Shown here: positions 1-21,465 of the stretch, piece after piece
How positions within the stretch are numbered: the stretch's first letter is position 1
Layout of the letters: every line of letters begins with the position of its first letter
From: Prorocentrum cordatum
Lineage: Eukaryota
NCBI GenBank assembly: GCA_963575745.1
Contig: CAUYUJ010000325.1
Coordinates: 434,001-498,000, forward strand
Direction: 5' to 3'
Length of the DNA: 64,000 nucleotides
Translations under genes and position numbers: made by a program
Notes under the pieces: generated by a model
The model's input: the letters and a program-made list of their open reading frames with translations, nothing else
The model's database searches: none
What the model was told of the DNA's origin: nothing

Positions 1-789
1 AGTTCATGGCGTTCTCCGAATATTCCTGGCACCTCAGACAGCGTCGTACCATACATGCACTTGCGGCGCCTCTGCTGCAACACCATATCGCCCCTTGTCA
101 GAGACGTGAAGCTTTGATGTATCCGCGGGCCTCCTCCTCCACAATGGGGTTCTTCTTGGAAATCCAAGCCGTAGGATACTCGTCATGCATGTGCGGCCAT
201 GGTGCAGATGCGAGCGGCATGTTCAAGAACGCATCCTCGTCGGCACGCGTGCCTATCTGGCCATCTGTGTTTACCATTAAAACAGTGTGTAGCATGTCGC
301 GCTCGGGCATCGCACTGATGCCGCTGCGCGCGCTCACTGGGCCCTCCTTCGTGCGCTGGCTGCGCAGGCGGGTGTCTCGCCCATATGGCATGTAGGTATG
401 TGGAGATTGAAGCCGCTGCGCGCTCCTCTCGGTGGCTCTCCCCATGCGCCTCGGCCACATGTCGATGGCCGGCAACGCGGCAGGTGCAGTCGTAGCAAGT
501 GCCCCTGCATGGTTGGATGTTTCCGCTATTAATGGCATAGGCGCATCCAGAGCAAGCACGGTAGCTTCCGTCGCCTGCACCGCATTGGACGATGAAGCGG
601 GTTGCCCCGCAGGTGTTGTTGGAAGGACTGCCGCGCTACTCTGCATCATCGCCGCGACGCGGTTAAGCTCTTCGCGAAGGTCCCTGAGTTCTTTAGCCCC
701 TCGGAGCATTCTCCACGACGATCGGCTGCATCCTGATCTCCAACAAGGGCATCATATAATGGAGCTCAGCTGTGATTATACCAACGCCC

Positions 790-965
790 CTGCAAATAAC
801 GCAGGGTGCCTCAGTTGCAGCACCTTTCATAGTTCCAGCCAACGATCCGTCCACATCAGCGCGTGCAGCTCGGCCCCAGCACTGCGCATGGAAAATGTGA
901 CCACACTGAAGCCTCCAGACCTTGTCGCGATGCATGAAGTGGTCCAGGCATACGGCACACTTGTT
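790..965 (-). pseudogene. RING-H2 zinc finger in the element A polyprotein
   Basis: Translates as CAVCLDHF...RLQCGHIFHAQCW...PCVICR, followed by AKELRDLREE (element B has ARELRDLRS). Confidence 0.8.
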
Positions 966-2279
966 AAAGCCACCGTCGCTGATGACTGGCGGTGTTGCCG
1001 ATGGCCTGATGCGCGTCTGGCGCTCCAGAGCAGATGCGCCAACCTCATACTGAATCGGAAGACCGACGGTTGCTGCATGGCTGCACGTGCTGCCGGTATG
1101 AATGCAGGTGCCCCTGCTGCGATTCGAATAGCAGGTTGCCCCGCGCGACCCAGCACCTTCTTTGCCTGACGCTCATGATTGCGACGCCGGCGGGCCACTT
1201 GCATTGAGAGATTGGCCTGCTGCGCGTCGTGAATGGCAAGAATCTCTGGGCGCAATTCCCCCATGGATGATTGCACTGCCAGGCCTGGGGCCTGTTGAGT
1301 CACATCTGAATCCATAGGGGTAGCCAAATATCCACGATGAGGAATCTGACCCGGCACACCTGACGCGCAACCAGAGCCGCGTGTCAACTGAGACTGATAG
1401 AAATCGTCGGCTGTCGCCCGTGCATACGGGTTCTCCGGCTGCGTTCCCACGAGGGATACCAGTCACCTAAGCAAAATAGCCAGGATACAATGGGAAGTCC
1501 ATCGGTGGTGCTGTAGGGCGCTCTGCAGCTGTCGGCCCGCATGTCGGATGATTGAAAGATGCTGGCACGTATTCGTACCTATTGGGGTTGTCCGGTGAAG
1601 GATTTGAGTCCGGGACATACTCCCAGGGAGGCGTCCGTCTAGCGCTAGGGATGTCGATGCCGCCCCTGCGCAAGCTCTGTCCGACTTAGCGAATTGGCCG
1701 GTACATCCACTCTTGCTGACCAACTGGACGCGGCGATGCGAACGGCGATGTCGCCTACAAAGCCTGGTAGAGCTCCGGGTCCATCCGAATGCTGTGGAGC
1801 CTCGCCTGTAGGCTATTGGTGCCCCCAGCACTCTGTGGAGCCCCAAATGGAGTTGTGGCCCTGCTCATGTGCAAACGACGCAGGTTTCCCTGCAGGACTG
1901 GCAGCTGCTGCGTCTGGACACGCCACGGATCGATGGCGCACAGCATATCGGTGGAAGTAATTCCACTCGATGTCATACCACTCACGTCCGCACTCTGGGC
2001 CTGCATCCATGATCCGTCAGATCCCCCTGCAGGTGCCCCCGCATGATGCACGTCTTGCAGCATAAATACTATAGAGAACTCGACCCCCTGGATGGGCGTC
2101 GGTTCGGGACACTTCAACTTGTAGGGGGAATAAACCAGTACTTCAACGATGATGCATCATGGAAAGATCATTTCTCGGATGCTTCTGACCGCTGTCCCAC
2201 AGGTACAAGGGATTGATTCATACATTCCCACGCGGTTATACCTGCACTTTTCGTTGGGCAGAATGCTTATAAGCTGGGC

Positions 2280-2945
2280 GATATGAGTCGGAGGAATTCT
2301 GCCGTTCCGGTCTGCCGACATTTAGATGTCATTTGCTGAGCACCACATAGCCATAGTAGCACGACGCAAATTCTTCAGACTAGCCATAATCAATACTTCG
2401 GAGTCGACGCGCAAGCCGGACTGGATTCTGCTGCCACCCTGTGAGTATGGGCAAGCATGAACAAACTGTCTGCCATGTCTCTCGACGGTGTCGTCGGCGC
2501 GGCATGACAGCCCTATGCGAAGTATATTCTGTATATTTTCCCACTAGGTACCGTGAGTGTAAAAAAGACAAAGTGCACCTGGAATAGTCAAGTCTGTTAT
2601 CCTCATATACAGTGATTCAGGGCACGTTATCCCAGGACTGATGCGTCCATTACTTGGACGTGTGAAATACGTCTCGTACATCTCAGTAGCGAACTTGCAC
2701 TTCTTGATATGGGGCCTGTTTACTTCATCCCAGCGCTGTCGACCATGCCGATCAAGTTCAGCACAGTTGGCATGCCCAATGGCGGCTGCTGAGATAACGC
2801 CGGACAGTCTCCAGGTGTTTGGGGCGGCAGCGATCGCATCCCTCAGGTGGCCATCGGTTGAGCAGCTCTGACAGCTCAGCTCCACCCATCCATCGAATTC
2901 GGCGAAAGACGGCACTGCTCGCAGAAACCTATGAGAGAAATGGCG
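2280..2945 (-). pseudogene. TPT1: Degenerate Tpt1/KptA RNA 2'-phosphotransferase domain in element A
   Basis: Manual translation through stops gives FSHRFLR...FDGWVEL...FTRPSNGR...SLY...THGT*WENIQNILRIGLSCR...GRQFVHAC...SGLRVDSEVLI...WCSANDI*MSADRNGRIPPTHI. This is colinear with the Tpt1 of element B. Confidence 0.75.
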
Positions 2946-5499
2946 GTTGTGAAATGGTTTGTGACGAGTAGCAATCGTGGGCCATTCTGAGCAGCAGCGC
3001 TGTTCCTCATAGGTGAAAAATGGACCAACAACTCCGTCTGCTTCAAGGGCCCCCATCAAGTCGGTCTTCTCGGACAGATGCGCGAGCGCCGGGCGTCTAC
3101 GCAGATATTGCGTCGTTATCGGCAGCGACGGCGGCGCCCTGAATGTCGCATTCCACCGCAATCCATCGATCGGACCCGGCATCATCATAGAGGTGATCTG
3201 CTGCGTTGATCTCCATGCGCCTGGTAGTGCGCACGCAGCCCCAATACTTTCGGCATTCAACGGGCATTTCCAAAGTAAGAGCAGGTTGCCCCGCATAACT
3301 CTGAGCTGCCGCCGACGCGGCGGGTGCACGGGCGCCCGCCGATGACGAGGCAGCGCCTGCAGATCCTCTGGGCGTCCGAGGGGTCCTTGGCGGAGTACTG
3401 ATGTCGAAATCCGGTCGTCTCGTCTCGTCGGTGTTGTAGTACTCGCACTTCTTGTCTTTGGGAGCTGCCCCTGATGCCTTTGACGCAGTTTCCAACGGTC
3501 TCTTATCGGCACCGCGCCATGACGAAGAGGCATCCTTTGATGATCCCTCCAGTGTCGGCGCCCAGCCAGTTCTGTGTGCCCTGCCAGGGGTGGGGCCGCG
3601 ACGTGGCACAGGATCCTTCGGAGTGGGAGTGCTGACGCCTTGAAATGCAGCTGCTGCGGCGACCGCAGCTGGCCCTCTGGATCGCCGTCGATCAGCAGGT
3701 TGCCCCGCAGGTCGTTGTTGCTTGCTCTCCAGGGCTGGGGTGATATGGGCTTTCCCTCTTCTTCTGTTTAGGCGGTGGTCTGAGCTGATCAAGTCCGAGT
3801 AACTTAGACTGACTCGACGATGCCGAAGATGGAGAAATATCAATAGGCGGATCTGTCTGCGGCTTCGGAGGAGGTGCTTTCGGCGTTGCCCCCGCGGGTA
3901 TCCATGGCCCACATCGCACGGGCCCTCTGCCAGGTCTGAGGCCCGCGCCATCAGACTTCCTGAATGCCACATTCCCGATGGTGGCCTTTTTTTTTTTTTC
4001 ATGATGGACAGGATATGATTTTGTAGCGCTAAGCCTTTGGCCAATACTAGTGTTTAATCAAACCTGCAGACCCAGCGCGGTAAGCGACCCTGCTTTCTGG
4101 GGAAAGATCCATGTCTTCAGTGACGACGCACCCTGGATCAGTAGGTGCGTCCGCATCGTAAGTGACGCCCGCGACAGCGGAGAGGGCGTCGGAGTAATCC
4201 GAGGAGGGGGTGCCCTGCAGGAGCTGCTGCCGTGGGGTCTACCGCTTCAGCCATATATTCAGCTTCATAATATCATGGTTGGTCGTCTTCTTCTGGCTTG
4301 GGCGAAGCATGTTTCCCCGCGTTGTAATCACAGTTGAATACCTTTAAACATGAACAGGTGAAAGGTTATTCCATATCTTGATAGATTGTGCTATTTCTTG
4401 AGCTGTAGCTTGTTCGCAGTCGTCTTCGTCCAACTGCTCGTTGCATGGCATTGTATTTGGATCGGTGCAGCAACCCCGACCATCACCGTGAGACCAGAGC
4501 CACGGTGTCTCGCGGAAGATAGGTTCCCTTGATGGGCGTCTCATGGGGCAGCCGAGCCCGTGGTCGGCATGCTCGAAGCATGCGCAAGCAACGCCTCTGT
4601 AAACTTCCGTTTCCTCGATGATGGCCCTCTTGCGCCGGCCCTTTTTGAGCGCGCAATCTCGCCTTTTTCTTTATCTTGATCAACCTTGCGGAGAGAGTGC
4701 CAGCGGCGAATACGGCGCTCAGTCCAGCCCTTGTCCAACCACTGTTGCACTGTCTATGGGTCTATGCGCTGGCGAGCCAACCCAGCGCCCAAATAGCCGC
4801 CAAGGCGCGGCATTTCGTCTTCTGGGCGTTCTTCGAGAGGTCGTTCCCCTCGAGGCGGGCGCCCCCGCAGACGCCCCCTCCTCGGGGGGGTGCCAGGTGC
4901 ATTGGCCTTCCAAGGAGGGGTCTTTGGTTTCCCCGCATCAAGAAGATGAGGGCCCTGAAGGCCGCTCTAGCGGGCGCCGCTGGAGCGCGCGCGCGCAGTC
5001 GGGCGAGCCGCCGTGGACCCGATCGCGACGCGCCAGACGAGCGTCATCTTCCCATTCTTCGTCATCGTCGTCGGCGCGATACTTGCGTCTCCAGGACTGG
5101 CGGCTTGCCGATCGCCCCCGGCGGCTCATGGAGCGGTCCGAAGCTGCGAATGTACATTGAAATCCTTCGTCGCGGCCGAGCTCGCACTGAACGCGTCCAG
5201 ACAGGTCGCAAAATCTCGCGGGTTTACCGGAGAGGGTCGTCATCACTCAGTTCCATGTTGGTCAGATTGCCAATAACAAGAGGATAAAGCACCAACTGTA
5301 TTTCCTCCTCTGCGGCAGGAATAGTGGCATCTGAATCCGCGGGTGCCCCCGCCATTTGTCAAGTTCTCGACTAATTCGATATCAGAGGTTGCCCCGCGAT
5401 GGGTATGCCCAGCCAGTCTGCCGGATCAGTTTCATTGTAGCCAGTGAATACCTCCTCGAACAGCCCGACGGCGCAATTCTCGAGGGACATATTGGCACT

Positions 5500-6230
5500 C
5501 AAATATCTGGCAACCATGAGGTTAACAAGTGCACCTGAGCTACCGGCAGGGTCGGCCAGGAGCGACTCCCGGTCAACAACCTGTATATCCGAGTCAGTTT
5601 GAGCCAGATGTTTCGACGGACATCTCCCTCGTGACCGAAAATACTACTAATATTGCCGGGGGTTCTCTCAGCAGTGCGCGAAAATGACATCATTCGTTCA
5701 AGTAGAGAGTCAAACTGTTGCTGGCCCCTCGGCATGTTGCGGTTAAGTGGCTGCAGGAGTTGCCGTGCACGCGGCGCCCCCACCCCAAGGGCTCCGAATG
5801 AATAAACTGTTAGAATTTGGAAGTTGGGGATGTTAAAGCCTGCCGCTCTAGCATCTTAGCGGGTTATCTCGAAGCGCGCCAAAGCCTGGTCGATCCGTTC
5901 TCCCGCATGGACTCGGAAGTCAATGAGAGCTGTTCCAGGCAGGGTCGAGTTGGCGTTCCTCTTCCAGATTCTCGAACTCCGTGCTTGAGAGGAACATGAT
6001 GTAGGTGGCGCCGTCGGTATGGCGGCCACGTATGTTAACACCAAAACTGATAACTGCTGGGGGGCCTATCATGGCTATGGTCCACGAGAGGCCTCGTCAG
6101 CCTCGCTGCAAAGCTGCAGCTTGTTGGGAGGGCGTCATGTTGCCTGTGGCCACGTTGATCCAGGCATGTACATCGCGGACGAATTCGCGGAAAGGTACTT
6201 GACCAGACGAGTCCCCATAGGGGCCGGTCG
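5500..6230 (-). pseudogene. Gag-like N-terminal region of element A (frameshifted)
   Basis: Peptide similarity to element B Gag at 20442-21050, read from ORFs 6097-6426 and 5499-5783. Confidence 0.7.
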
Positions 6231-6680
6231 TTCTTGTGTCGTCTCCACCACGCATACGCATGTCCCACCGCACGCCCGATCGCGACCCATGTGAGCCCAA
6301 GGAGAGCAATACCAATCCAATGGCTTCGCAGGTCGTGGTCGGATGTAGTCGGTTGGGGTTTTCAATCTGTGGTCGCAAGTCTGCGTGGGGGCGGGGGCGG
6401 CGCAAAGTCGCATCGCATGCTTCCATGCATTATGTATTCGAAGAACTCCCTCATTGGAGCAGGTGGGTGGACTTCAGGAGTGTAGTAGCGCAGGGATGTA
6501 GGACGCAAGTAAGAGGCCTCCGCGTAGGCCGAGGTGTCACTGCAAGTGTCCTCGCTTTGCTGCGTAAATGTATTCATTCCTCTGCGCAAACCCACTGCAC
6601 CCTGATGTTCCACCACGTCAGTGGTCCACCAGGTAGTGCCGTGGATGGTGAGGAGTAAAGCTAGAACTGACTTCCATAGG

Positions 6681-6695
6681 CCAGCTCCGCTACCA
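6681..6695 (-). promoter_or_regulatory. Primer-binding site, probably tRNA-iMet (TGGTAGCGGAGCTGG)
   Basis: Identical to 21466-21480. It is complementary to a tRNA 3' end ...CUCCGCU-A-CCA, with the A1:U72 pair typical of initiator tRNA. Confidence 0.75.
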
Positions 6696-6923: not shown

Positions 6924-6969
6924 TGCATACCGCTGCCGCCAGATCCTCAGGTCCCCCATTGAACGGAGC

Positions 6970-7510: not shown

Positions 7511-7669
7511 CAGAGCCTACGATGACTCGCCATCTCAGAAGCCTCCAAGACGGCCCAAGACGGCCCAAGAGGCCCCCAAGAGGCCTCCCAGACGGCCCAA
7601 GTGGCCTCCAAGAGGTCCTGAAGGAAAGCCCGAAGGGGCCAAAATCATTGACTCTGCTGAGGCTGCTGA

Positions 7670-7935
7670 AGTCGAAAGTGAGCCTGGTAGGTCAAATCGC
7701 ATCCGATTCCGTAGACATCGGATGGCAAATAGCGTCCGGCATCGTACTGAGGCTGTTCAGTAAGAGGAATGGATGGATAAGATAAAATAAGATCGATGTA
7801 GTGATCTTTCCAGCATATAGCGAACACTCGCGGTGTCCGGGCAAATAGGGCGCGCGTGCCTTGAGCCAAAGGCAACGGCGCGCGAGCTATACTCCCGATT
7901 CTATACAACATCTCCCAAAGAGCTACCCTTAAAGT
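7670..7935 (-). repeat. 3' LTR of element B
   Basis: 266-bp copy of 21481-21746, with about 12 substitutions counted by eye. Confidence 0.92.
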
Positions 7936-8344
7936 CGGGAGGGGAGGAGACGGAGAGCATAGCCGCGCAGCCGTTAAGCTCTACAAAGGCCGCGCGCGCG
8001 ACTGTTTGCAAGAAAACAGTGTGTACACTCTGGCCTAACACCAGACTGTAAGGCGAGTTTCCTCGCAAAGCATTTCACGCAAATACGAGATAGCCCCTTC
8101 GGACGATGAAGGGCTATCGGCTCAGCTAGAGGTAAGCCAAGCGGGCCATGCCTCACCGAGCAAGCGGGTATTAAGGGAAAGAGCCTGAATCATATAAAGC
8201 CGGCTCGTTGCCAGGCGCGACATGTGAGGCTCGTTTCCGAGCAACTAGGAGGGCGCCTCTGTAGTAAGCGCCCATGCTGGCAAATTGGACCGCGGGGGGC
8301 AACAAGGACACACTAACATTGATTAGGCTTGGGTTTGTTTCTGT

Positions 8345-8444
8345 NNNNNNNNNNNNNNNNNNNNNNNNNNNNNNNNNNNNNNNNNNNNNNNNNNNNNNNN
8401 NNNNNNNNNNNNNNNNNNNNNNNNNNNNNNNNNNNNNNNNNNNN
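8345..8444. other. Assembly gap (100 N) at the position where RT/RNase H would be expected
   Basis: N run between the integrase C-terminal region and the 3' UTR/LTR. Confidence 0.95.
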
Positions 8445-8505
8445 CAGCATCATGGCTTCTATATCATGTTCCTCGTTTTCTTCGTAGATTGTAGACAGAC
8501 GGCCT

Positions 8506-9285
8506 TCACTTGGTGATGAAGCACCTGGGTGTCTGGTGGAGGCCTGTTTCCAGGCGGGTCGTGTTCTCCAGACGCGACGTGGTGCCCAAGTGCTGATACT
8601 TGGCCAGGTCGTCATGAAATCCTAAGGAAGGACCATTTGCGTCAAGCATTTGGAATGAGTCCCTGAGTGAGTGGCTACCAGTGACTTGAGAAATGTTCAG
8701 GCCAGTGCCCACACACTCATAGTAGTGGAAGGCTGGGCTGATATCGTTGTCGCAGTGGATCAGCGTAGACCCGGTGGCGTAATTTACTGCAGGTAGACTT
8801 GACACACTTTTGGCCCATCTAACTGCTACTACGTGTTCTACTCGGAAATAATTTCGCACGAGATACTGTAGTGCTAGATGCACGCGCGGGTGAAACTTGC
8901 TGTCGTCTGCAAGATTGAGGTTTCCCTTGTAGCCTGGGATGTAGCCGAAGACTTCGGCAGGTTTCCCTGCGCCGAGGTGTGCCACATACGTAAGGACGGT
9001 TTGCATGGCCACATTATCCATGCCAAGTTCCCGTGCGAGGAGACATTCAATGTATAGTGTGTGACGAGCATCAGGATACATCACAATTACCTCACGAGAT
9101 CCTGCCTTGACAACAATATGTCCTCTTTCAGGCACTTTACGGATCACAGGGAATGGGCCGTTCCAGCCTCCATGATCGTCCTTAGTGGCAGTGGGTCGAT
9201 GGTAGTCGACCAGATCCCCTGCCGAGTAAAGGCGAGCACCATCTGGGGCCGTTTTAGCCCTGAGAGCACGATTTGTCTTGGCCAC
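8506..9285 (-). CDS. Post-integrase segment of the element B polyprotein (frameshifted continuation)
   Basis: GDLVDYHRP...GGWNGPFPV resembles the GDxV...W.GP segment found after retroelement integrase cores. Confidence 0.6.
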   Translation of the reverse strand: MAKTNRALRAKTAPDGARLYSAGDLVDYHRPTATKDDHGGWNGPFPVIRKVPERGHIVVKAGSREVIVMYPDARHTLYIECLLARELGMDNVAMQTVLTYVAHLGAGKPAEVFGYIPGYKGNLNLADDSKFHPRVHLALQYLVRNYFRVEHVVAVRWAKSVSSLPAVNYATGSTLIHCDNDISPAFHYYECVGTGLNISQVTGSHSLRDSFQMLDANGPSLGFHDDLAKYQHLGTTSRLENTTRLETGLHQTPRCFITK

Positions 9286-12200: not shown

Positions 12201-12484
12201 ATGAGTGTAGTACGTGTCTGAGCTCGCCATTCAGCATGCCGTACTGCATGGCCATACCAATCCAACACATTCTGTGGCATCGCCTGTTTGCATGTACATG
12301 CCCACAGTTGCGAGCTAATCGGTATTGATGTCGCTACCTGCATATAAGTACCACTCGGTGTACTGTCTTGCATATTGAACCGAATACCAAAATGACACAA
12401 ACGCATCCGTATCACTGAACACTTAAGATCTTCCAGGGCATCACGTACTGGAGATAACTTCCAAACATATCCTGGGGGGACCAA
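9254..12484 (-). CDS. Element B Pol segment: C5-methyltransferase-like domain, tandem CxxC-H-C motifs, HHCC + DDE integrase
   Basis: Integrase zinc finger LHLRWHH...CDTCREC and core EMDLMF...LYSDGEGAL...IESRNGNLR (about 9410-10040). MTase-like motifs LDLCGGEGG, LQPSC, REQP, IDQCATG (about 10850-11460). Confidence 0.85.
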   Translation of the reverse strand: MVPPGYVWKLSPVRDALEDLKCSVIRMRLCHFGIRFNMQDSTPSGTYMQVATSIPISSQLWACTCKQAMPQNVLDWYGHAVRHAEWRAQTRTTLIRHLNDKILGSTTTYGNVPIYMNTYTRKDHNIHHYVTTNKGGPKWSDVIRRVTINLDTNAVIQDIAIADQPTGYDWHAPLPAGVANISTRLYWQPEEPVLLGNEPTQSPQKPRRVIIDDCSLPLPTLAINACTHSTATMGTQTGEQNEHVLPTESRIKQKERLKAEKEAGIKPRRIKKHVEDGSDDCGDDLSGLGQDFMATWSTDVPIELISSDEDDDLFLTLPTSMPDAHADIYSIVATLCYGHDNCVDMLDLCGGEGGISELAFSRGLSSGGNLERTTYVDLGDPSVQRVVDHYFAICYVRVAMLQPSCRTTGPPSYYNYRVIHNTWEQHRKENIPHKTTYCGKIAVAQDDARRLFMREQPTGTWVDDISPWKKLANRPHITTVRIDQCATGLKGTAGDYIKHTSSITSNDETTLKPFERLKCNGQHVHAQPCNRELSLAQTYTRRLQSASVEAVYSAKAIDTTRGNAHTSTAHAYPADLPDQAELGEGMRRIGDRIIPKVATCPACIDNVRKDSPSHNRDPTQCKYHDSISVYWPCPACQRDLTRSKGVNNHFDTEPGKCRFAVPFKLPDDHDPEGKTVPAWWKPIPKPGEGQASAPGGRQGARARPPRPRSFGNADPTSGASSYDMLGDAPERGNTPSAPSSEPPQVAARRGRLQGVPPPPDAVDEGDRLRRATRNPLASTGPGAARLPDWTRFDIQRSLQNLRSHEPRVVRKELRKLHLRWHHAKEPKMRLILDKVGLGNARLNMIKEVCDTCRECRAWERPGNSTLPSVSFPGNWLDEGEMDLMFYKKRTIFHIMDRCIRLAAGQEISDRERDAILDAYHCCWIAYRGPLKVLYSDGEGALNNDTAKAMMANKGTELRIRAPGQHATSIESRNGNLRGVLHMIEEELNRHNIPVVFTRVLAEGIFVTNAFTFYNGVSPYQAHTGRQPSFLPGLDTLGFPKGPGTSGHERERRVREVKPRNHNSSHCCGQDKSCSQG

Positions 12485-12809
12485 ATATTATGATTGTCAC
12501 ACGGAGTTTCCTGGCTTTTATCAAAAGGTTTTGGATACGTGACCAATGTGGGGCCACTCTCTTTCCTGGAGTTCGTACATGCCAGTCACCCGGGGTACTG
12601 ATCCATATGAGAGCGAAATCTCCACTGATCACCGCACCCAGGTAATCTGTGCCCACGCTCGTCATAAGCTCATTGTGGGAAATACGATCACAGATATAAC
12701 CACGGGCGCGGAGGTCGGCGCAAGCCTCTCTCGCATCTTCAATGACAAAAGCCCTTTTACTAAGGCAGGTTACCCCGCTGTCCTCGTTACCCCCCGGCTT
12801 TTCGGCCAA
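12441..12809 (-). CDS. Element B polyprotein fragment: first, more degenerate methyltransferase-like module
   Basis: DFALIWISTP...IIIFGPP continues after a frameshift into PPGYVW...RMRLCHFG, paralleling the motif spacing of the second module. Confidence 0.4.
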   Translation of the reverse strand: MAEKPGGNEDSGVTCLSKRAFVIEDAREACADLRARGYICDRISHNELMTSVGTDYLGAVISGDFALIWISTPGDWHVRTPGKRVAPHWSRIQNLLIKARKLRVTIIIFGPPRICLEVISST

Positions 12810-12848
12810 CAGGCAAGACGACGAGGGGGCGACGTCGCCCTGCCATCT

Positions 12849-15800
12849 TCAAGATAAAGAAGATGTGCCTGCAATGTCTGCCAGCATCTGGGCTTCCTTC
12901 AGATGCTGGAGCTCAGCACTGCAGCGCGCCGTGGCCTCAGAGGCGGATTGCTCCGCAAATGCTGTCAGCATGGATAGATTATCCATCAGCTGTTTCAGCA
13001 CGCCTTTGGACCTCGCGTCGCTGACTGTCTGCAGCTCACGGTTCGTGTACCCCATCACTATCTTCCGGCGGGACCGTGCAGAGTCCATGGGTACACTTCC
13101 ACCATGCTGGGCCAGTGTCCTGGCTACGAAGCAATCGAACGTCTCAAGATCGTCGATGCTGTCGCCTCTCATCGTAGCCTTGGCGAGCGTCTCCATCAAC
13201 CCCTGAGGCAGGTTTCCCTGCAATTGCTCGCGCTCCTGCGCCGGGGTCGGTTCGCCCGTCAGCACCGTCTGGAATGACGTGCTGCTTGAGCTCGAGGCGG
13301 GTTGCCCCGCAGCTCCAAATCGATCACACCTGATCGACAGATGCCCTGACGGCAACTTCGTCGTCGGCATGATCTTGGAGCCCTCGGGGAGCTCCATCTT
13401 GACCTGCCCCTTCCCAGGGAATATCAGCTTCTCCTGGCCTCGTTCAAGCACAATGATCGTGCGTTTGTCCTGCGTACTATCGAGGCCTAGGATGGCTGGC
13501 AGGTCTTTGCCACAGCCTGACACAATGTTCGTCTTGTACGAATCGAGCTGGGTCGACCCCTGGTACTCGCAGGCAATGCTGAATGTGCCTACGGTATCCG
13601 CTGGGGCCGACCCTTCGCCCACCCCGTTGATGTTCAAACGGGAACGGGGCTCGAACGTACAAGTACGGCCGTGCGCCTCAGCAGCCTGGACGAACTTGCG
13701 GCTCGTGTTCTCGCCCATGATGTTGATCTCCGAGCCTACATCGATGAGGATAGAGTTCCCACCATCGTCCAAGAACGTCTTACTCGGCTGCTTGACGCGC
13801 ACCGTTTCTGAAGTTTCGGCTATGCTGTTTGGCGGGTTTCCCCGCAGGTCATTTGTACTCCCTGGCGGGTTACCCCGCATGACGCTGGCATACGGCCTGC
13901 CTTCGGCCATACGTACCAGGTCGATGTACTGGAAATACGACACGTGCTGGACATGATCGCCACGCTCCTCCCGCCAGTTGGCATACTCATCACGTATGCT
14001 CTTATACTGCTCGCGGGTCGTGCGTCTCGTCAGCGTCAGATACGAGTGAAGGGCAATGTCCTGCAACCCCTCATTCGTGAGGTGATCCCTGTACTGCAGC
14101 CACTCCTCGAACTCCTCGTTCGTCGCTGTGATGTCGACGGCCCTGGCTGCTGTTGCTGCTGTTGCAACTGAGGAGTCTGAGAGGTCAAACGACGCACCAT
14201 CAGTCTCGGGATTGTCGGCATCCAGCATAAAGGTTGTGTGCGCATTTTCCATTTGATTCTGGAAATGCCGAACACGCAACTCACGCAGATGATCAGGGTC
14301 CAGTGCCAGCTCTGCCCCGCCCCCACTCTGGGGAGACATCTGAGGAGTGTTAGGCAGGTTTCCCTGCTGAGGCACCGTCATCGGGATAAGCTGATCGAAG
14401 TATCCCGTCTCCATTGGCGGCCTCACCTCCTCTGGCAGGTTTCCCTGCTGTTGGGGCTGAGCTGTCTGCCTGTCTAGCATCCTGGCCGTCATCTCCTCCA
14501 CCATGCTCCTCAAATCCCGCAGCTCCCTCGCTGCTTGCTCAGGAGTCTGAGTGAAAGAGCTGGTCCATGGGAATGATGACGCTATGATGCCAGGTGCTCG
14601 GCAGATAGCACATGGTGGCTGCTGAGGATCTCCCTCGCGCTGGTTTGCGACATGGCCCACCACGTTTGAATTCCAGCACCCCTCATGGAATAAGTGATTA
14701 CACCTCAAACGGTAAACGCTCTCCCTGGGCTGAAATTCTCCGAGGCATACCGCGCAGGTATCTTCCATCCCAGCGAACACTTCCACATCTGCTGCTCTGG
14801 GATATACCCGCCGCTGTCTCTCCAAGACCGTCCCGGAGGGCATGAAGGCTGCTGGGGGATCCCCTGATGGATCCAGCACCTCCGGCACTCCGGCAGCTGC
14901 AGCTGGAGGAGCTGCTGGCACGGAAGCTGTAGGCGCCACAGCGGGCGAGTTCCCTCGCATGGGTGAGCCTCTGTTCCTCACGACCTCAAGCGCGGCTGCA
15001 CGCGAATGATCACGCACGTTCTGCACGGTCTGTCTGCGCCTAAAGCATGCCTGTTGGGTGTGGCATGTCTGCCCGATATAATCAGGCACACCTCTACTGC
15101 CAGACGATATCGAATGGGCAGTGGGCTGGACAGCCACATCTGGCGTCGTCGGCGCAGGCATAAAGGCCATGTGCGGATACATGGACTGATCACTACAGCG
15201 CACGTGAGTGAGGCTGTGGAACTGATCCACCATTTCACGAACAAACTTGTTCGGGACTCTAGACCCATCAGGGTACAGTGGCGGATTCATGCGTGCTGGC
15301 GGTGGCCTCTGGCCCTGGGCCATGCTCGGGTGAGCATTGAAGGCTGGGATGAAGGCTCGTTGCCGAGCAGGATCCCTTGGATTGGGACCCTCTGGCTCCC
15401 AGGACCAGGCCGGCCTCCACCTCTGGCCACTCGGGTGAGGCAGGTTATGGCTCTGCACCTGTTGCACAGCAGCCGCCACTCTTGCACGGAAGTCATCAGG
15501 CACACCAGCGACTGTGGTTTGTTCAGCAAACGGTCGATGATGGCTTGGGGTGCCGGGCAGGTTTCCCTGCTGACTCGTTGGAGTGCCTGGCGGCATCATG
15601 TTCAGGAGAGCCGTGCCATGCTCGGCCCCGGCCGCTGCGATCCTCTCCATGAGGGTGCCGTTCGTGACAGGGCGGCCAGGAGTCCCGAACGGAGACTGTG
15701 CAGGTGGCGTAGCCATTAGGGTCACGACCCTCGGCGTGTGCATACTCTGCGAGGGGCTACCATGCATCTGCTCAAATCGAGCAGGCTCTCCAAAGATGCG

Positions 15801-15908
15801 GCCGAACGTCTGCGGGTCTCCCTGCGGCTCAGACATCTCAGCTCTGAGTCCATTTATAGGCAGGTTTCCCTGCATGGCCTGACGATTTCGCGTCGCAATG
15901 GCGGACAT
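12849..15908 (-). CDS. Element B polyprotein segment with RING-H2 finger (14599-14757) and retropepsin-like aspartic protease (about 13330-13760)
   Basis: RING: CAVCLGEF...LRCNHLFHEGCW...CAICR. Protease: ILIDVGSEINIMG...INGVG...LPAILGLD. Confidence 0.85.
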   Translation of the reverse strand: MSAIATRNRQAMQGNLPINGLRAEMSEPQGDPQTFGRIFGEPARFEQMHGSPSQSMHTPRVVTLMATPPAQSPFGTPGRPVTNGTLMERIAAAGAEHGTALLNMMPPGTPTSQQGNLPGTPSHHRPFAEQTTVAGVPDDFRARVAAAVQQVQSHNLPHPSGQRWRPAWSWEPEGPNPRDPARQRAFIPAFNAHPSMAQGQRPPPARMNPPLYPDGSRVPNKFVREMVDQFHSLTHVRCSDQSMYPHMAFMPAPTTPDVAVQPTAHSISSGSRGVPDYIGQTCHTQQACFRRRQTVQNVRDHSRAAALEVVRNRGSPMRGNSPAVAPTASVPAAPPAAAAGVPEVLDPSGDPPAAFMPSGTVLERQRRVYPRAADVEVFAGMEDTCAVCLGEFQPRESVYRLRCNHLFHEGCWNSNVVGHVANQREGDPQQPPCAICRAPGIIASSFPWTSSFTQTPEQAARELRDLRSMVEEMTARMLDRQTAQPQQQGNLPEEVRPPMETGYFDQLIPMTVPQQGNLPNTPQMSPQSGGGAELALDPDHLRELRVRHFQNQMENAHTTFMLDADNPETDGASFDLSDSSVATAATAARAVDITATNEEFEEWLQYRDHLTNEGLQDIALHSYLTLTRRTTREQYKSIRDEYANWREERGDHVQHVSYFQYIDLVRMAEGRPYASVMRGNPPGSTNDLRGNPPNSIAETSETVRVKQPSKTFLDDGGNSILIDVGSEINIMGENTSRKFVQAAEAHGRTCTFEPRSRLNINGVGEGSAPADTVGTFSIACEYQGSTQLDSYKTNIVSGCGKDLPAILGLDSTQDKRTIIVLERGQEKLIFPGKGQVKMELPEGSKIMPTTKLPSGHLSIRCDRFGAAGQPASSSSSTSFQTVLTGEPTPAQEREQLQGNLPQGLMETLAKATMRGDSIDDLETFDCFVARTLAQHGGSVPMDSARSRRKIVMGYTNRELQTVSDARSKGVLKQLMDNLSMLTAFAEQSASEATARCSAELQHLKEAQMLADIAGTSSLS

Positions 15909-16324
15909 TGCTCCCTGGCCAGCGGCCCAGGGGTCTTGTTGATATAGTTAACCTGTCCGCCAATTGCTCCACCTGTTCAGGGTTCAGAGCGGCCGCTATT
16001 TGGCCCAGGTCCGAGGTGCTGATGGCCTGCCAAGCTACGGCTTGGAGCCGCGCTTCCGGCCTCGCTCTCGGTGATCATGAAGATCTGGTGGACCTCAGGC
16101 TGGTTTCCCAGCGTGGCGGGACTGTAGTGGTCCCCAACCTCCCTGTGGAGGTAGACCATGGGAGGGTCGACGCCCTCTTGGTCGCGGGACCACTGGTATT
16201 TGACGCTGGCACTGCCAGCGTCAGCCCACCTGCCAGGGGCCGACGGCGCGGCGGGGGGGACACGCGCCCGGCGATCCCCCAGGTACTCTGGATTGCGCCA
16301 GTGCTTCCCCGTGGCAAGGTCCTC

Positions 16325-17075
16325 TACATGGTAAATGTAGTACGGTTCGATGATACCGTTATTTCCCTCGGGCAAAAGGACTCCGTTATCATACCAACAG
16401 AACTTCATACCATCTTGCATGGCCTTGTGCCAATCTACGAAGATGATGATGTCGGAGTCTGGGTCCCACCCGCTGTTCACGGCACGACGGCGGACCGTCG
16501 GCGCGAAGTGGATGCGCGACCGGCCTGTCCCTCGTTTCTTCGTGTTGTGTTCGGGTCTACAAGACAGGCCGTGCCACATAATGCCTTCGAAGGCATTCCA
16601 CCGAGTGCCATGCATGGCGACCTCGGGGCACGGGGCCGGTATCCCGGCAGGTTGGTCGCACAGTACAATATAATTGTACAGCGACCATGGAGCTTTCAAT
16701 GTCCACGAATGCCCCTGAGAGGCGCGGATGAAGATCTCGGGCTCGCCGGAGTCCCGCGCTAACACCTTGAACTGAAGGCGTTGTTTTTCTTCTCCGTTTG
16801 GTTCGCGGACATGAACCACTTCCATCATGATGGCCGCCAACTGGTCCACCGATCGACCATATAGGTTCGCGGTGATGACTTTGGCCTCATCATGTCTGGG
16901 ATTGTACCCATCATGCCTCGATCGCCCGGTTTTCCACGGATACTCATTTATGAGCTCTACGAGGTTAATCCAGCCATCATGATCATCGAATGTAGCCAGA
17001 CCCCACACAGGATTGTGTGCTTTGTCCGGCGCATGTCAGCATATCCTACTGAGAGCTTTGCTCAGTTGCTTGAGG
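16325..17075 (-). pseudogene. TPT1: Tpt1/KptA RNA 2'-phosphotransferase domain within the element B polyprotein (one in-frame stop)
   Basis: LSKALSRIC*H...DHDGWINL...KQRLQF...IRASQGHS...MHGT...GLS...RSRIHFA...IFVDWHKAMQDGMKF...NGVLLPEGNNGIIEP contains the Tpt1 hallmark motifs in order. ORFs 17036-18067 and 15977-17008 are in the same frame. Confidence 0.9.
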
Positions 17076-19109
17076 GTGTGGTTGGATCTCGGGATAATGT
17101 TTTCTTGCCTGCACTTTCTCACGAATTCCTCATCCACCGAGCGTATCGGCGGGGGCTTCCGCAGAGCAAGTCTATCCCTGATCACATTCGGAGTCCCACT
17201 GGTGAAGGACGCGTCTCCTGGGCGGCGCAGCTGATCCACGGGCGGGTTTCCCCGCGCAGGAGCCTCTGTCGCTGAAGAGGCTGCGGCTCCTGGAGAGGAG
17301 GAAGCTGCAGCAGCAGCGCCTGGCGGGTTTCCCCGCGGTGATCCGCGACTGGCGCTACCCCTAATCGTCGGCACCCAGGTGCCCCTAGACAGAGCACCTT
17401 CGTCGGACCTTTTGGAACGGGCCGCCACAGGCGAAGCTGGCGCAGGGGCGTACCCTGTGCGCTCGAAAGCCATCGCCTTCTGAGCAATGGAACTGCTGCG
17501 ACTAGGCGGGCGTCTCCGTTCCTCCACAGAGTCCTGAGGTTGCTGCTTGGGCTCAGATCCTTGTGCTGGAGTTGCGCCAATCGGTGATCTCGGCGTTACA
17601 GAGCGAGGCGCCTCCATCTGCACATCTGGCCCAGGATCCTCAGAGCGTGCCTTCGGCCTCATTTCCGAAGACGACTTCGGTGCTGGAGTTTCACTCTTAG
17701 CCTTCGATTGTAGTGGGAGCGGGGGCTTCTTAGCCCCCTTCATGTAAATCCTTTGGGAGTCCATCAGCATTTGGCGAGTTGCCTCGCGTGTGCGTTCTTC
17801 TGCTATTCGCATACGTTCCTCATCCGCCGCAACTCGCCGGGCCTTCTGTTCATCCTTGTTCGCTGGTTCTGGCTGTTGGGACTGGCTGGAAAAGCCGGGC
17901 GAGTTTCCTCGCATTCCAGGAAGACTAAAGAGCGCGTCTTTTTCTTCCTGGGTCATGGGCACCAGTCCCCTTGGAGCCGGAGGAGGCTGATCCTTTTTGT
18001 CTTTCGGCTCCATGTGACCCATGATCCCGAGACGACGATTGATCTCTGCGATCTTGTCCTGTGTCATCGGGATCAGTGGCGGATGGGCGCCTTCCTTATG
18101 AAGGGGTTTTGCCCCTGTTTGGGCTCAGACCTCCATTATTTCCTACGGGGCATCCCGGCCTGTGGTTCTGGAACGGCTCGGAACATGGTCCGCAAGCTGC
18201 TGGAGGCCTATGCAACTTGCGAGCCGCGATAACGTTTCGCAGCTGTGTCCGCACTTCTTCAATTTCAGGGCGGCGGATGTTTGTTGCGAGATGATAGCCT
18301 CCGCGGATGGCCTCACCCTGAGCGCCCCTATAGGCAGGGTTGCCCTTGCCGAAGGCCGAGTGTTCCCCTTTACGGCGTCTTGGGTCATTGTAAGGAAGTA
18401 GTTCACCTCCTCGCCAGAGAGCGTGTTCCTTTGGGCCAGCCTGCCTATACTCACGAGGAAGCCGGGCCTGTGGATGTGGCTCTCCTCTGACGCGCGGATG
18501 GGAACGAGACCTTCCTGCATTCTCATCAGAAGAGGCTGCCGACGCAGCCTGAGTGGAAGCTGGCGGAGGCGCCGGCGGAGGCCCCTGTGCGATCCCAGGT
18601 GGATCGGCTAGTAGAGGCGGGTTGCCCTGCTGACTGGAGCCTGGCGCACATGGCGCTTGTGCCGATGGTGATGGTGCATCAGGCTCGTCAGGATCAAAGT
18701 CCACCTCTTCCTCACCGGTGACCTCCATCATGAGGACTGTGGCTTCATCCTCGCATAGCCCGCAACCATCGCCCTCTTCTTCTTCTGATGTAGAACTGCC
18801 AATGATGATGGCCATTGGCGCAGCCGGGACAGGCAGGTCCCCCTGCATAACCGGCGTCTGTGCGTCGCTCGGCTGTCCCGGAGTAGGCGGCGCGGTTGTC
18901 GGCTCAGGCTCGTTGCCGAGCACAGGCTGCCCAGCAACGTTGCGCATGGCGGTGTGATTTGGCCATCGCCCCGCCGCCTGGAGACCCCATCCTGGCGGCG
19001 GAAGAGCCTGGCCGCGCATGGCGATGGCCCTTTCAAGGGCATCGCGCCATCTCCCTCGGGAGTACCACACATGTCTCTGCACGCCCTCAGGATGCACACT
19101 GTCAGTCAA
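17076..19109 (-). CDS. Pro/Ala/Ser-rich, probably disordered linker segments of the element B polyprotein
   Basis: Consecutive minus-strand ORFs 18096-19109 and 17036-18067 lie between Gag and Tpt1. No recognisable domain. Confidence 0.55.
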
Positions 19110-20253
19110 TAAGGGTCAAGGCTGCCAACACTAACTCCGAGTCGTCGCAGGCGTCAGTGTCCTGCAGCATCACGATGCCAGCTTCGATGCTTTCTTGACT
19201 CTCGGGATATGCGATGGTCAATACCTCGTGCATCCTCATGAGGGTTTGCAGTAGTGTGCGTGGTCCGCACTCGCCTGGAGCAAGCGAACCAGGGGGTACA
19301 AATGGGACCTCTGGTGCGCCTGCAACGAAAGCTTGAACGAACGCTTGAGACCCCATTTCTACAAGTTCATCATGATTTCGGGGATAGATAGGCCTGTTTC
19401 CAGGCGGGAGTTCGGGTGGAGGTTGGAGGTTGCGGCCAACCTCTGAAAGCGAGGCCTCTACAGTGACGTCCTCGTCACTGCTCTCGTAGGCCATGATGTT
19501 GCCTGGGTCCCCGAACATCCAGTCGAAGAAAGATAAAGGCTGGTTTCCCAGCGTTCCGTGTTCCACGGGAGTGAGCTCGTTGTCGCCAACAACGAACCTG
19601 CGGACGTACTCGAGATAGTACGCGTACAAGCCATGACCATACGCCTCGAGCTCGTCGACGTTGTCCATGCAACTGACCCAAGTGTAAAATATCTGTTCCA
19701 TGGCCTCAAAATCCTGGAGGCTCAGATATTCGATGAATGGTTCACTTGAGCCAAAATGGACTTCGGTCGATCTGCCCTTCCCGTTTCCCTTCGCTGGACG
19801 ATCTCTCACAAGATGGTCGGCACTGTCACACTCATGGCACTTTAGAACCTGGCCGTCTCTACCCCGCGGGTTTCCCCGCCTACCTTTGCCTTTTCCTGAG
19901 GTCTCTCTACGGCCTTTGCCGCGGCCCTTTCCCCCGAAGAATATCCCATCATACTGTTCATCTGAGAGCCTCTGGAGGAATGCCGTGACGCCTCGTCCAT
20001 TCAACCTCCGACGACCTCGTTTGCCTTTACCTTTTCCTTTGAAGCTCCTCCGTATCCTCCTCCTAACACGACGCGCTGGTTTTCGTGTGAATCTCCTCCA
20101 CCTCCGTTTAGCCTGTTGTAATAACCAAAACAAATGTTCAGTACGCTGATTGTCATTTTCCATATTCATGATATCTGACCAATCTAAGGCTTCAGCACCG
20201 TCTGATGATGTAGTATCTGTGTCGGTGCCGGAGTCGAAATCATCGTCTCCCAA
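19102..20253 (-). CDS. Gag C-terminus/nucleocapsid: basic KGKG repeats and degenerate CCHC knuckle
   Basis: AKRRWRRF...KGKGKG...NPRGRDGQVLKCHECDSADHLVRDRP; the last Cys has become Arg. Confidence 0.8.
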   Translation of the reverse strand: MGDDDFDSGTDTDTTSSDGAEALDWSDIMNMENDNQRTEHLFWLLQQAKRRWRRFTRKPARRVRRRIRRSFKGKGKGKRGRRRLNGRGVTAFLQRLSDEQYDGIFFGGKGRGKGRRETSGKGKGRRGNPRGRDGQVLKCHECDSADHLVRDRPAKGNGKGRSTEVHFGSSEPFIEYLSLQDFEAMEQIFYTWVSCMDNVDELEAYGHGLYAYYLEYVRRFVVGDNELTPVEHGTLGNQPLSFFDWMFGDPGNIMAYESSDEDVTVEASLSEVGRNLQPPPELPPGNRPIYPRNHDELVEMGSQAFVQAFVAGAPEVPFVPPGSLAPGECGPRTLLQTLMRMHEVLTIAYPESQESIEAGIVMLQDTDACDDSELVLAALTLID

Positions 20254-20441
20254 GTAGGTGGATACACCGTCGGTTAGGGGGTTTGATCCACCCCATAGAG
20301 AACGGTGTGGTTGAGGCTCTCTAGAAGGAGGGCTGGTTGCCCAGCTCGGTTGTGGTCGATCCCCTGCTAATAGAGCAGTGTATTCTCCAGGATCGTCGGC
20401 CCATATGCTTGAGGGCCCGTTTCCAGGCTGGGCTTCAGTGG

Positions 20442-21281
20442 TTAAGGTAGTGTAGAAATTCCCACAGCTGATCCCCTTCCCCTTCCAAACACAGATCCTA
20501 TGTTACCAGGAGACCGTTCTGATAGGTGACCTATCGAACGCACCCTCTCCAGCAACTCATCATATTGTTTCTGTGTTCGGGGCGTTTGGTGGTTGAGTGG
20601 CTGTAAGAGTTGCATAGTTCGCTGGTTGCCAACGCCCAAGGCGCGGAACAGGATCGTGGTTAGTAGTTGGAAGTTGGGAAGGTCAAATCCCACCGACTGT
20701 GCCTCAAGTCGGGCTTCGACTCGGGTAAGGGTGACATCAATTCGTTCTCCGTGAGGCACATGAAAATCGATGAGCTGCGTGCCGGAAGTGAGCTGGCGCT
20801 CATCTTCCAGGCGCTCGAACTTCATGCTTTGGAGGAACATGATGTAGGTCACTGGGTCGGTGTGGACCCCATCGATGTCAGCACCATAGTTTATAATGTC
20901 AGGCGGTACCCTCATGGCGTGTGTCCTCGCTAGGCCACCCAGGCCGCGTTGTCCGCTTGTGACGTTGAGCCACGCGTTGACCTCATAAACGTACTCGCGG
21001 AAAGGTACGTTGCCTTGAAGGTCCCAGTCTGGGCCATGTGTTTGCCCATCGGTGCTGTTGTCTCCACGACGCATGTGTCCGATTGCTGCCCCCAGCGCGA
21101 ACCATGTGATAGCGAAGATAACCAGCCCAAGGCTGTGTAGATAGGGGTGGTTATTAGGCGCGTTGCCGCGCTGGGGTAGCGCCTTGTCGAGTCTTCGAGG
21201 CGCTCTATCTGGCGGATCTCTCCACCCATGCTTCAAGTGCTGCGCTTTTGACTCGTTGCCGAGCGGTTGGTAGTAGCGCAA
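20442..21281 (-). CDS. Gag N-terminal region of element B
   Basis: GPDWDL...PFREYVYEVNAW at the first ORF after the PBS; homologous to element A. Confidence 0.7.
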   Translation of the reverse strand: MRYYQPLGNESKAQHLKHGWRDPPDRAPRRLDKALPQRGNAPNNHPYLHSLGLVIFAITWFALGAAIGHMRRGDNSTDGQTHGPDWDLQGNVPFREYVYEVNAWLNVTSGQRGLGGLARTHAMRVPPDIINYGADIDGVHTDPVTYIMFLQSMKFERLEDERQLTSGTQLIDFHVPHGERIDVTLTRVEARLEAQSVGFDLPNFQLLTTILFRALGVGNQRTMQLLQPLNHQTPRTQKQYDELLERVRSIGHLSERSPGNIGSVFGRGRGSAVGISTLP

Positions 21282-21465
21282 TGGTGAAACATATATGGTA
21301 CCAATGTTGCTGTCTAGACGTCGTACCTCTCGTGTTGCTTCTTGCTCTTGGATATATCCTCGTCAACGTACTGGGAGTGGTAGCGCAGGGTGGTAGGTGG
21401 TCACGAGGATCGTGCCGAAGAGTATGAGGATGAGAAGAGCAAGAGCTGACCACACGAGAGTGCGG

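Follow-up and report, generated by a model that had tools for sequence, protein, structure and literature searches.

What is a short hairpin doing some forty times over in the protein-coding sequence of a retrotransposon? The question is raised by a stretch of 64,000 nucleotides (nt) from Prorocentrum cordatum (GenBank assembly GCA_963575745.1, contig CAUYUJ010000325.1, positions 434,001 to 498,000 of the forward strand), hereafter the window, with coordinates counted from its first letter. An initial annotation made from the letters alone had noticed dispersed hairpins with GNRA tetraloops in a single range, 597–21171; the hairpins are present as described, but the range belongs to two elements rather than one. 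These are neighbouring, related long terminal repeat (LTR) retrotransposons of a Ty1/copia-like kind, here called elements A and B, both coding on the minus strand. The hairpins are very probably a selected signal of the sense strand, as borne out by their geometry, their codon choice and the compensatory changes in their stems.

A Hairpin of Fixed Geometry on One Strand

For counting the motif, the regular expression GCNNG-GNRA-CNNGC was searched on each strand of the whole window. The minus strand shows 42 matches, 40 of them within 597–21158 and two outside (32048 and 57121), and only two are found on the entire plus strand (11284 and 55305), so that the strand-wise count proposed in the initial annotation sets 40 matches against 2 + 2. 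All 35 start positions given there match the motif on the minus strand, and five more were found (4307, 8203, 15812, 17774, and 20415). When G-U pairs are counted, 36 of the 40 in-range motifs are fully paired, compared to none of the four out-of-range or plus-strand matches. The asymmetry persists when only GGNRAC cores with all four outer pairs formed are considered, with 39/103 on the sense strand versus 0/26 on the antisense strand of 1–21800, and 0/118 and 5/98 in the rest of the window.

The motif is a G-C-closed stem of 5 base pairs (bp) with a tetraloop of the GNRA or, rarely, the GNYA type. Below GNRA loops on the minus strand of 1–21200, stems are 5 bp long in 42 cases, 4 bp in eight and 6 bp in two. 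Loop size is equally strict, since with the GCNNG/CNNGC stem held fixed (minus strand, 1–21800) a loop of 4 nt gives 47 paired hairpins, whereas loops of 3, 5, 6, and 7 nt give 1, 2, 1, and 2, respectively. Among these 47, the loop is GNRA in 36, GNYA in seven (GGCA four times, GACA twice, GATA once) and different in four, GAAA being the commonest with 22. The set of GNRA loops reported in the initial annotation is retained, with the qualifications that its GGGA loop (18833–18846) is private to this copy, all other contigs aligned there having a different sequence, and that GGCA loops also occur in element B. A C follows the stem in 31 of the 34 motifs of element A, and hence the hairpin unit can be regarded as five codons (15 nt). 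Element B is distinct in this respect, with GCGGG..CCYGC stems followed by T and with GCAA and GGCA loops. As a side observation, element B keeps the same stems with GGCA loops, and the loop rule may be GNNA in some lineages.

Hairpins occur about once per 350–400 nt on the sense strand of both elements, while both LTRs of element A have none and the remaining 42 kb of the window are without the series. In isolation, the 36 fully paired hairpins have predicted stabilities of −7 to −9.3 kcal/mol and exceed their antisense copies by about 1.5 kcal/mol, and in a context of ±70 nt 23 of the 40 hairpins are predicted to form with P > 0.5. A search of the whole window with Rfam at gathering thresholds gave no family.

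All hairpins given here and below are on the minus strand. In element B, GCAA loops are found at 597–610 (fully paired), 1131–1144, 3281–3294, and 3695–3708 (one G-U each), GAAA loops at 1880–1893 (fully paired) and 4307–4320 (one mismatched pair), GGCA loops, which are of the G..A but not of the GNRA type, at 495–508, 1104–1117, 2029–2042, and 5339–5352, and a GACA loop at 6542–6555. Element A has fully paired hairpins with GAAA loops at 8542–8555, 8957–8970, 10792–10805, and 11890–11903, and further GAAA hairpins at 14354–14367, 15557–15570, 16099–16112, 17242–17255, 17323–17336, 19392–19405, 19539–19552, and 20415–20428 (one U-G). Other loops are GTAA at 12765–12778 (one G-U), GCAA at 18908–18921, GACA at 13111–13124, and GATA at 16635–16648. 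Two motif matches have a single A-C mismatch (15812–15825, GAGA; 18617–18630, GCAA), and two near-motif hairpins deviate by a U-G at the second pair (12148–12161, GAAA) or an A-U closing pair (12943–12956, GCAA).

Covariation, Codon Choice and Reading Phase

The expression leaves two stem pairs free, and these were tested for covariation in the 42 aligned minus-strand matches against 500 shuffles. They are formed in 37 and 40 of the 42 rows, with 18 and 15 double changes, respectively, and use G-C, C-G, A-U, U-A, and G-U. Of all cells, 96.7% are paired, compared to 79.2 ± 1.7% after shuffling, and the covariation score is 0.420 versus 0.081 ± 0.021; neither observed value was reached in any of the 500 shuffles. 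Sliding the partner columns by 1–3 positions lowers pairing from 96.7% to 24–50.5%. Hence, the claim of paired, covarying stems with G-U wobbles is substantiated. CpG decay was considered as a source of the covariation, as it could turn G-C into A-U via G-U or A-C intermediates; it was ruled out because it can give neither C-G, U-A and transversion-type swaps nor the ten identical stems of a metagenomic relative (L006, see below).

Codon choice was analyzed in the eight minus-strand open reading frames (ORFs) of element A (12,642 nt), with 1000 shuffles for each test. These ORFs contain 30 motifs, 28 of them fully paired. When synonymous codons are shuffled, preserving every protein sequence and the codon usage, only 3.5 ± 1.6 motifs (maximum 8) and 2.1 ± 1.25 paired ones (maximum 6) are left; codon permutation gives 0.24 and 0.03, and the antisense strand of the same ORFs has one motif, which is not paired. 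With 3.5 expected versus 30 observed and covarying stems, the signal is of the nucleic acid level and on the sense strand, as the initial annotation had supposed.

Its further statement that the motif appears in several reading frames and in the non-coding 3' region is likewise correct. When each motif is translated in its longest open frame, 29 of the 40 give x-G-N/D-x-(P), seven give A-x-Q/K-x-A, and four are in the third phase, among them the GCAA hairpins at 17774–17787 and 20332–20345; the GCAA hairpin at 15355–15368 also departs from the main phase. In the encoded pentapeptides, residues 1 and 4 co-vary as base pairing requires (Q-L; R-P/S/A/T; L-E/Q; P-R; H-V). Three motifs lie beyond the last long ORF near the 3' LTR, in the 3' untranslated region, namely 8053–8066 and 8229–8242 (GAAA, fully paired) and 8203–8216 (GCAA, one mismatched pair). 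At the other end, two hairpins precede the first in-frame Met, at 21158–21171 (GCAA) and, as a near-motif with G-U at the base, in the 5' leader at 21251–21264 (GCAA).

Conservation in Relatives

A scan of metagenome contigs with a trimmed alignment of the integrase core of element A gave 13 loci (L001–L013) with 46–58% identical integrases, whereas scans of viral contigs and of metagenome contigs with a protease alignment gave no matches. At the protein level, a search of 1.84 billion representatives with the protease region gave 873 relatives at E ≤ 1e-3, the long ones showing the architecture CCHC..RING..protease. The initial annotation had named conservation in other family members as decisive, and the hairpin is indeed present in both the metagenomic and the protein relatives.

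In L001–L013, GGNRAC cores are fully paired in 34 of 184 cases on the sense strand versus 2 of 73 on the antisense strand. Invariant across the relatives is only G-GNRA-C, the remaining stem being lineage-specific: TCACG..CGTGA in ten copies in L006, GCACG..CGTGC in L009, GCAYG or GCTTG in L001, TCGTG in L002, GCGCG below GAGA or GTGA loops in L011 and L003, and a mixture of stems below GCGA loops in L013. The repeated units of L001 and L006 continue past the stem. Separately, a variant with a bulged T in the 3' arm, missed by ungapped expressions, was seen in L009 (2245, 3932, and 4364) and L012 (428).

Moreover, hairpins are found at homologous places. The linker about 400 nt before the integrase core, otherwise unalignable, has one in the window (10282–10295, GAAA loop), L001, L003, and L005 and two each in L002 and L011, with decayed copies in L004, L009, and L012. 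A second homologous site is located about 1.6 kb after the start of the integrase core. From these two linkers, 17 hairpins of eight elements were picked by position alone; 93.3% of their cells are paired (75.8 ± 3.3% in shuffles), double changes occur in three pairs, and covariation is scored at 0.533 versus 0.196 (reached in 0/500 shuffles). The main codon phase is used by 27 of the 33 hairpins in long ORFs of the relatives.

Around the RING and protease domains, six sites have hairpin-type pentapeptides both in the window and in protein relatives of 30–43% identity, with hairpin-coding pentapeptides at the same alignment sites in P0001, P0003, P0004, P0005, and P0023. The swaps are consistent with pairing (RGNSP/RGNAP; QGNLP/RGDAP/RGNTP; RGNPP/RGDTP/RGNTH; AGQPA/AGKPA; QGNLP/HGNVP). 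For example, the hairpin at 13208–13221 (GAAA) corresponds to HGNVP in P0003, that at 13297–13310 (GCAA), which reads AGQPA, to AGQPA in P0001 and P0004 and AGKPA in P0003, that at 14435–14448 (GAAA) to RGDAP in P0001 and RGNTP in P0003, and that at 14945–14958 (GGAA), upstream of RING, to RGNAP in P0003. Hairpins thus persist at the same linkers although the proteins of the relatives are only 30–57% identical. Codon choice, compensatory stem changes and this persistence at inter-domain linkers together indicate selection on the paired structure, not on the peptide.

In the wider family, pair-consistent x-G-N/D-x was counted in 65 of 511 cases compared to 30–105 of 471–981 in controls, with a background of 7%. 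As distant members show little pentapeptide enrichment, the hairpin code seems to belong to a subclade of the family. Within it, the hairpin is a conserved RNA-level signal, given that relatives carry sense-strand G-GNRA-C hairpins with lineage-specific stems at homologous linkers.

The Carrier Elements

Element A spans 7665–21751 (minus strand) including a 5-bp target-site duplication, TCAGC (21751–21747 and 7669–7665). Its 5' LTR (21481–21746) and 3' LTR (7670–7935) were recognized as direct repeats of 266 nt with 95.5% identity. Abutting the 5' LTR is a primer-binding-site-like 12-mer starting with TGG (21469–21480), which may resemble the 3' end of initiator tRNA-Met; ARAGORN predicts no tRNA gene in the window. 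The sense strand just upstream of the 3' LTR (7936–7965) is pyrimidine-rich, with no obvious polypurine tract.

In the sense direction, element A begins with ORF1 (20445–21362), which has a Gag-like helical domain and is homologous to N-terminal parts of the family polyproteins. The model of this fold is weak, with a predicted local distance difference test (pLDDT) value of 57.6, and its Foldseek rows, although including capsids of Ty1, Arc, HIV, FIV, and copia, all have E > 1 and are not used as evidence. ORF2 (19105–20502) encodes, as judged from the translation, an Arg/Lys-rich stretch and a CCHC-like knuckle, a candidate RNA-binding part, with the last Cys of the knuckle replaced in this copy; the hairpin at 19866–19879 (GAAA) overlaps the family-conserved G-N-P of the knuckle region. 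The order continues with two ORFs without matches and ORF5 (about 15980–17035) with an RNA 2'-phosphotransferase domain (Tpt1/KptA; PF01885, E 3.6e-19). ORF6 (12852–15947) combines a RING finger (zf-RING_11, E 2.8e-8) with a retropepsin-like domain, and ORF8 (9257–12487) an N-terminal part, a C5-methyltransferase-like domain (10385–11497), a zinc-finger linker and the integrase core (9317–9907). Besides Tpt1 and RING, Pfam recognizes nothing in the Gag-side ORFs; integrase and protease are too divergent for Pfam, and a sequence search of the PDB with ORF8 gave no matches.

An assembly gap of 100 N (8345–8444) falls exactly at the position of reverse transcriptase and RNase H in relatives, and the apparent length of element A is that of the gapped assembly. 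Proteins related to the integrase ORF extend into a reverse transcriptase, probably of the RVT_2 type, and RNase H. In P0154, P0155, P0156, and P0158–P0161, the RVT_2 region follows the integrase core, and the protease lies upstream in the window. The relatives score E 1.7e-7 to 4.2e-5 for RVT_2 (23.7–31.5 bits), just below the cut-off of 31.6, and PF07727 is precomputed for four of nine relatives.

The reading frames of element A are broken, and several ORF borders coincide with small indels relative to other copies. In view of these broken frames and the 4.5% LTR divergence, element A looks like an old copy of an element normally encoding one giant polyprotein. A role of the hairpins as frameshift stimulators was dropped, since several ORF borders match indels of 1–4 nt among other copies and the interrupted frames seem to reflect decay of this particular copy. 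Differences between copies of element A are dominated by transitions.

The methyltransferase-like domain is modeled at low confidence (pLDDT 51.9). Its top Foldseek rows are DNMT1, DNMT3, DNMT2, and HhaI (E 7e-3 to 7e-2), in VIA all 50 rows are C5-methyltransferases (Z 7.8–9.1 over 152–205 residues, root-mean-square deviation 3.9–5.2), and Atlas gives a lead to PF00145 at 0.84. G-G-x-G-like and P-x-C-R stretches are conserved, the latter not being the canonical P-C. Its place between protease and integrase is the same in the window and in each of the five loci that reach far enough upstream (L001, 4760–5437; L002, 2593–3279; L004, 1423–2097; L005, 2577–3254; L009, 3234–3899). Copia elements of Symbiodinium, which may or may not belong to the lineage of this family, are stated in PMC5890265 to lack DNMT domains.

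Element B (1 to about 6700), identified by colinear blastx and tblastx matches to element A and to proteins of the family, is represented by its 5' part from Gag to RING. It is truncated by the start of the window and colinear with element A, with 39% identity over the RING region. Four sequencing runs, marine metagenomes among them, contain thousands of contigs of the element family. The flanking DNA gave no Pfam family for 16 ORFs from 24–64 kb; it includes a tandem array at 34911–39134 (unit of about 770 nt, copies 92–94% identical) that belongs to the flanking host DNA, and its GC-rich part consists largely of trinucleotide and other short-period repeats (CCT, CGA, CAC), for example at 22099–22164, 23495–23855, and 32696–33178.

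Candidate Readers of the Hairpin

The coding strand of an LTR retrotransposon is a long-lived single strand as genomic RNA and mRNA. Many copies in one orientation, the exact size, the invariant loop-closing and basal part, the lineage-specific stems and the enrichment in untranslated parts and linkers point to a putative multi-copy binding site for a co-evolving partner that reads the sequence. The obvious candidate is encoded nearby in the element. In the window, one segment of ORF2 is unusually rich in arginine, and a basic stretch followed by C-x2-C-x4-H-x4-C upstream of RING is present in 17 relatives among 161 proteins as well as in the family consensus.

Accordingly arranged, the proposal reads as follows. 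The hairpin would form in the full-length genomic RNA or mRNA and serve as a multi-copy site for an element-encoded protein, most likely the part of Gag with the basic stretch and the CCHC knuckle. Each RNA would thereby carry about 40 or more identical handles marking it as the element's own, and these might nucleate or complete particle assembly in the manner of dispersed packaging signals. Stems particular to a lineage (GCNNG in the window, TCACG in L006, GCACG in L009, GCGCG in L011) would be expected from co-evolution with a partner that reads them. From sequence and anatomy, Gag binding and packaging is the most plausible candidate for the job of the hairpins, held tentatively and at somewhat less than an even chance.

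Several observations weigh against it. For 17 of the 40 hairpins, the predicted probability of formation in the local context does not exceed 0.5. Among family hairpins with one non-Watson-Crick pair, G-U (19) exceeds A-C (11; other, 8) in the direction expected for sense-strand folding, but this excess is not significant. L004 retains the proteins, with hairpins that are only degenerate. Retroviral zinc knuckles generally bind compact GNRA loops poorly when compared to loops exposing guanines. The CCHC/basic module also occurs in distant members with little enrichment of hairpin pentapeptides, and therefore the partner need not be Gag. Finally, many hairpins keep their position over deep divergence, a fixity not needed by a packaging code based on count.

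The same RNA hairpins might instead be read by another protein of the element or by the host, acting in export, translation, stability, condensates or escape from silencing. All evidence for a selected sense-strand hairpin fits this explanation equally well, and the element also carries RING and Tpt1 domains without an assigned role. In one variant, the methyltransferase-like domain, present in the window and in every locus with sufficient upstream sequence, would mark the invariant loop-closing cytosine. However, nothing ties these proteins to RNA hairpins, the model of the methyltransferase-like domain is of low confidence with DNA enzymes as best matches, and P0155 has no methyltransferase core, yet shows seven pair-consistent pentapeptides. 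Taken together, a reader other than Gag, including this variant, is possible but on the unlikely side. As particular readers, IRE1, Rnt1, Smaug, METTL16, and m6A-type sites were considered and set aside on account of loop size or sequence.

Hairpins and Deletion Joints

Contigs of four sequencing runs (X1, X2, X3, and X7) were aligned to element A (8445–21479) at a likeness threshold of 80%. Among the best-supported joints, which alone are listed and some of which may stem from other family members at this threshold, 16 of 36 endpoints are within 10 nt of a hairpin compared to 2.9 ± 1.6 for random positions, and seven of 18 joints have both ends at hairpins. Deletion joints of other copies adjoin, for example, the hairpin at 15860–15873 (GAAA). 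A widespread variant, seen in three runs, has about 3 kb including the Tpt1 ORF replaced, with one edge at the hairpin at 17899–17912 (GAAA); in these other copies, 14890–17895 gives way to about 34 other bases. The Tpt1 block is hence variable within the family.

This clustering raises the possibility that the hairpins are kept for recombination or repair. Pausing of reverse transcriptase at a hairpin would allow the enzyme to jump between identical 15-mers, the hairpins acting as phase-locked module joints, i.e., identical structured landing pads at domain borders for template switching. Such jumps would keep the frame, as most hairpins share one codon phase (29/40 in the window, 27/33 in long ORFs of relatives) and lie in linkers between domains, and the repeated units of L001 and L006 reaching past the stem would fit as well. 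If true, giant retrotransposons could gain, lose and exchange domains (RING, Tpt1, methyltransferase-like) in frame, much as in exon shuffling but at the level of RNA, and the hairpins could at the same time serve as Gag handles. Short dispersed repeats are, however, expected to break as a side effect without any selection, and the clustering may be only such a consequence of short repeats pausing reverse transcriptase. Selection for evolvability is weak, neither a GNRA loop nor exactly 5 bp would be required, and the joints are subject to the limits given above. Selection of the hairpins as joints is thus considered unlikely, albeit the link between hairpins and joints bears on how giant elements acquire accessory domains.

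A neutral explanation would see the hairpin as a passenger, a module of 15 nt (five codons) or 33 nt spread by slippage or template jumping and harmless in disordered linkers. In line with this, the unit with its usual 3' C is exactly five codons long, stems are homogeneous within a lineage, and pairs with a spacing of 33 nt recur. The latter were observed in the window upstream of the protease (13865–13878, GTAA, being the first and 13832–13845, GAAA, the second of the pair), in L002 (3696/3729), L011 (357/390), and L006 (3115/3148), and in the pre-integrase linker, hairpin pairs 33 nt apart flank a conserved P-[EP]-A-Y-G-[ED] peptide. A passenger, however, leaves unexplained the compensatory double changes, the persistence at homologous sites amid unalignable linkers, the strict loop and stem length, and a codon choice far from the synonymous expectation, and is accordingly regarded as improbable.

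Compaction, DNA-Level and Peptide Explanations

The initial annotation had also considered compaction of the RNA by GNRA loops docking into receptors elsewhere in the same molecule. The dominance of GAAA loops would suit this. The canonical 11-nt GAAA receptor has the motif TATGG ... CCTAAG. The sense strand of element A has no copy of the CCTAAG half, nor was a TATGG..CCTAAG pair found within 60 nt, other receptor types not having been searched. The compaction claim therefore gains no support, and we give it little credence.

Similarly low is the probability of a DNA-level signal, be it a cruciform, a single-stranded DNA hairpin or a duplex site bound by a protein dimer. In its favour are the nearly perfect palindromic symmetry of the sequences and the DNA-methyltransferase-like fold encoded in the element. 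A dimer on duplex DNA, however, would leave the complementarity of the unspecified positions unexplained, the loop is asymmetric and occurs in one orientation only, and G-T pairs of the sense strand are A-C mismatches on the other. In the replication scheme of LTR elements, sense-strand DNA is not single-stranded for long, which counts against this explanation. Protein binding to single-stranded DNA, raised in the initial annotation, has thus become less likely, given that the folded strand is the coding strand, which is long-lived in single-stranded form as RNA.

A short linear x-G-N-x-P peptide, e.g., a protease cleavage site at domain borders, would account for the 29 of 40 motifs in that phase and their location in inter-domain linkers, but as sole explanation it is contradicted and scarcely credible, since residues 1 and 4 change only as base pairing dictates, the motif occurs in two further phases and in untranslated parts, and synonymous shuffling with all peptides kept removes almost nine in ten motifs.

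Significance and Comparison With Known Systems

With one minimal hairpin about 40 times through its ORFs, the element family offers a clean case of overlapping coding for protein and RNA structure, with synonymous sites as internal control, and a candidate, open to direct testing, for the recognition of a genome by Gag at many sites outside RNA viruses. In practical terms, sense-strand G-GNRA-C in the x-G-N-x phase is a signature for finding and orienting members of an abundant and poorly annotated marine family.

Element A and its family resemble Ty1/copia elements (Pseudoviridae) in the LTRs, the 5-bp target duplication, a putative primer-binding site by the 5' LTR, the order Gag-protease-integrase-reverse transcriptase in relatives and the probable RVT_2 type of the latter enzyme. 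The family differs from them by much larger elements with RING, Tpt1, and methyltransferase-like inserts. Cis signals of LTR retrotransposons are usually few and centered on the leader (primer-binding site, dimerization/packaging region, polypurine tract), and a comparable series of hairpins is not known to us from any copia-type element. Full-text searches of the literature revealed no account of GNRA hairpins repeated in the ORFs of retrotransposons, and passages of PMC5890265 and PMC9998398 make no mention of such hairpins.

Among viruses, single-stranded RNA viruses have dispersed packaging signals and packaging-signal-mediated assembly, as outlined in PMC6281560. The likeness is in many short stem-loops with a shared loop motif and variable stems, largely in coding sequence of the packaged strand. 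The present hairpins differ in that the carrier is an LTR retrotransposon and binding by a coat or Gag protein is putative. They are also more uniform (5-bp stem, GNRA, fixed closing and basal pairs), phase-locked and located at conserved linker sites.

A retroelement parallel is the retroviral psi, where tetraloop hairpins (SL2–SL4 of HIV-1) are bound by nucleocapsid zinc knuckles. Shared with it are the genomic RNA of a retroelement, the tetraloop form of the hairpins, and a CCHC knuckle together with basic residues in Gag; in contrast to psi as one cluster in the 5' leader, about 40 copies are here distributed over at least 13 kb including the ORFs. In stem length and predicted loop fold, the hairpin comes close to boxB of phage lambda, a 5-bp stem with a GNRA-type fold read by the arginine-rich N peptide, for which phage lineages have their own stem and loop variants. 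The strongly arginine-rich ORF2 matches this picture, whereas boxB has a pentaloop, occurs once or twice per operon, functions in antitermination and shows no homology. Multi-copy cis-acting stem-loops in coding sequence are already known, while GNRA hairpins repeated through the ORFs of a retrotransposon, as deduced here from sequence, appear to be new as far as the literature searched.

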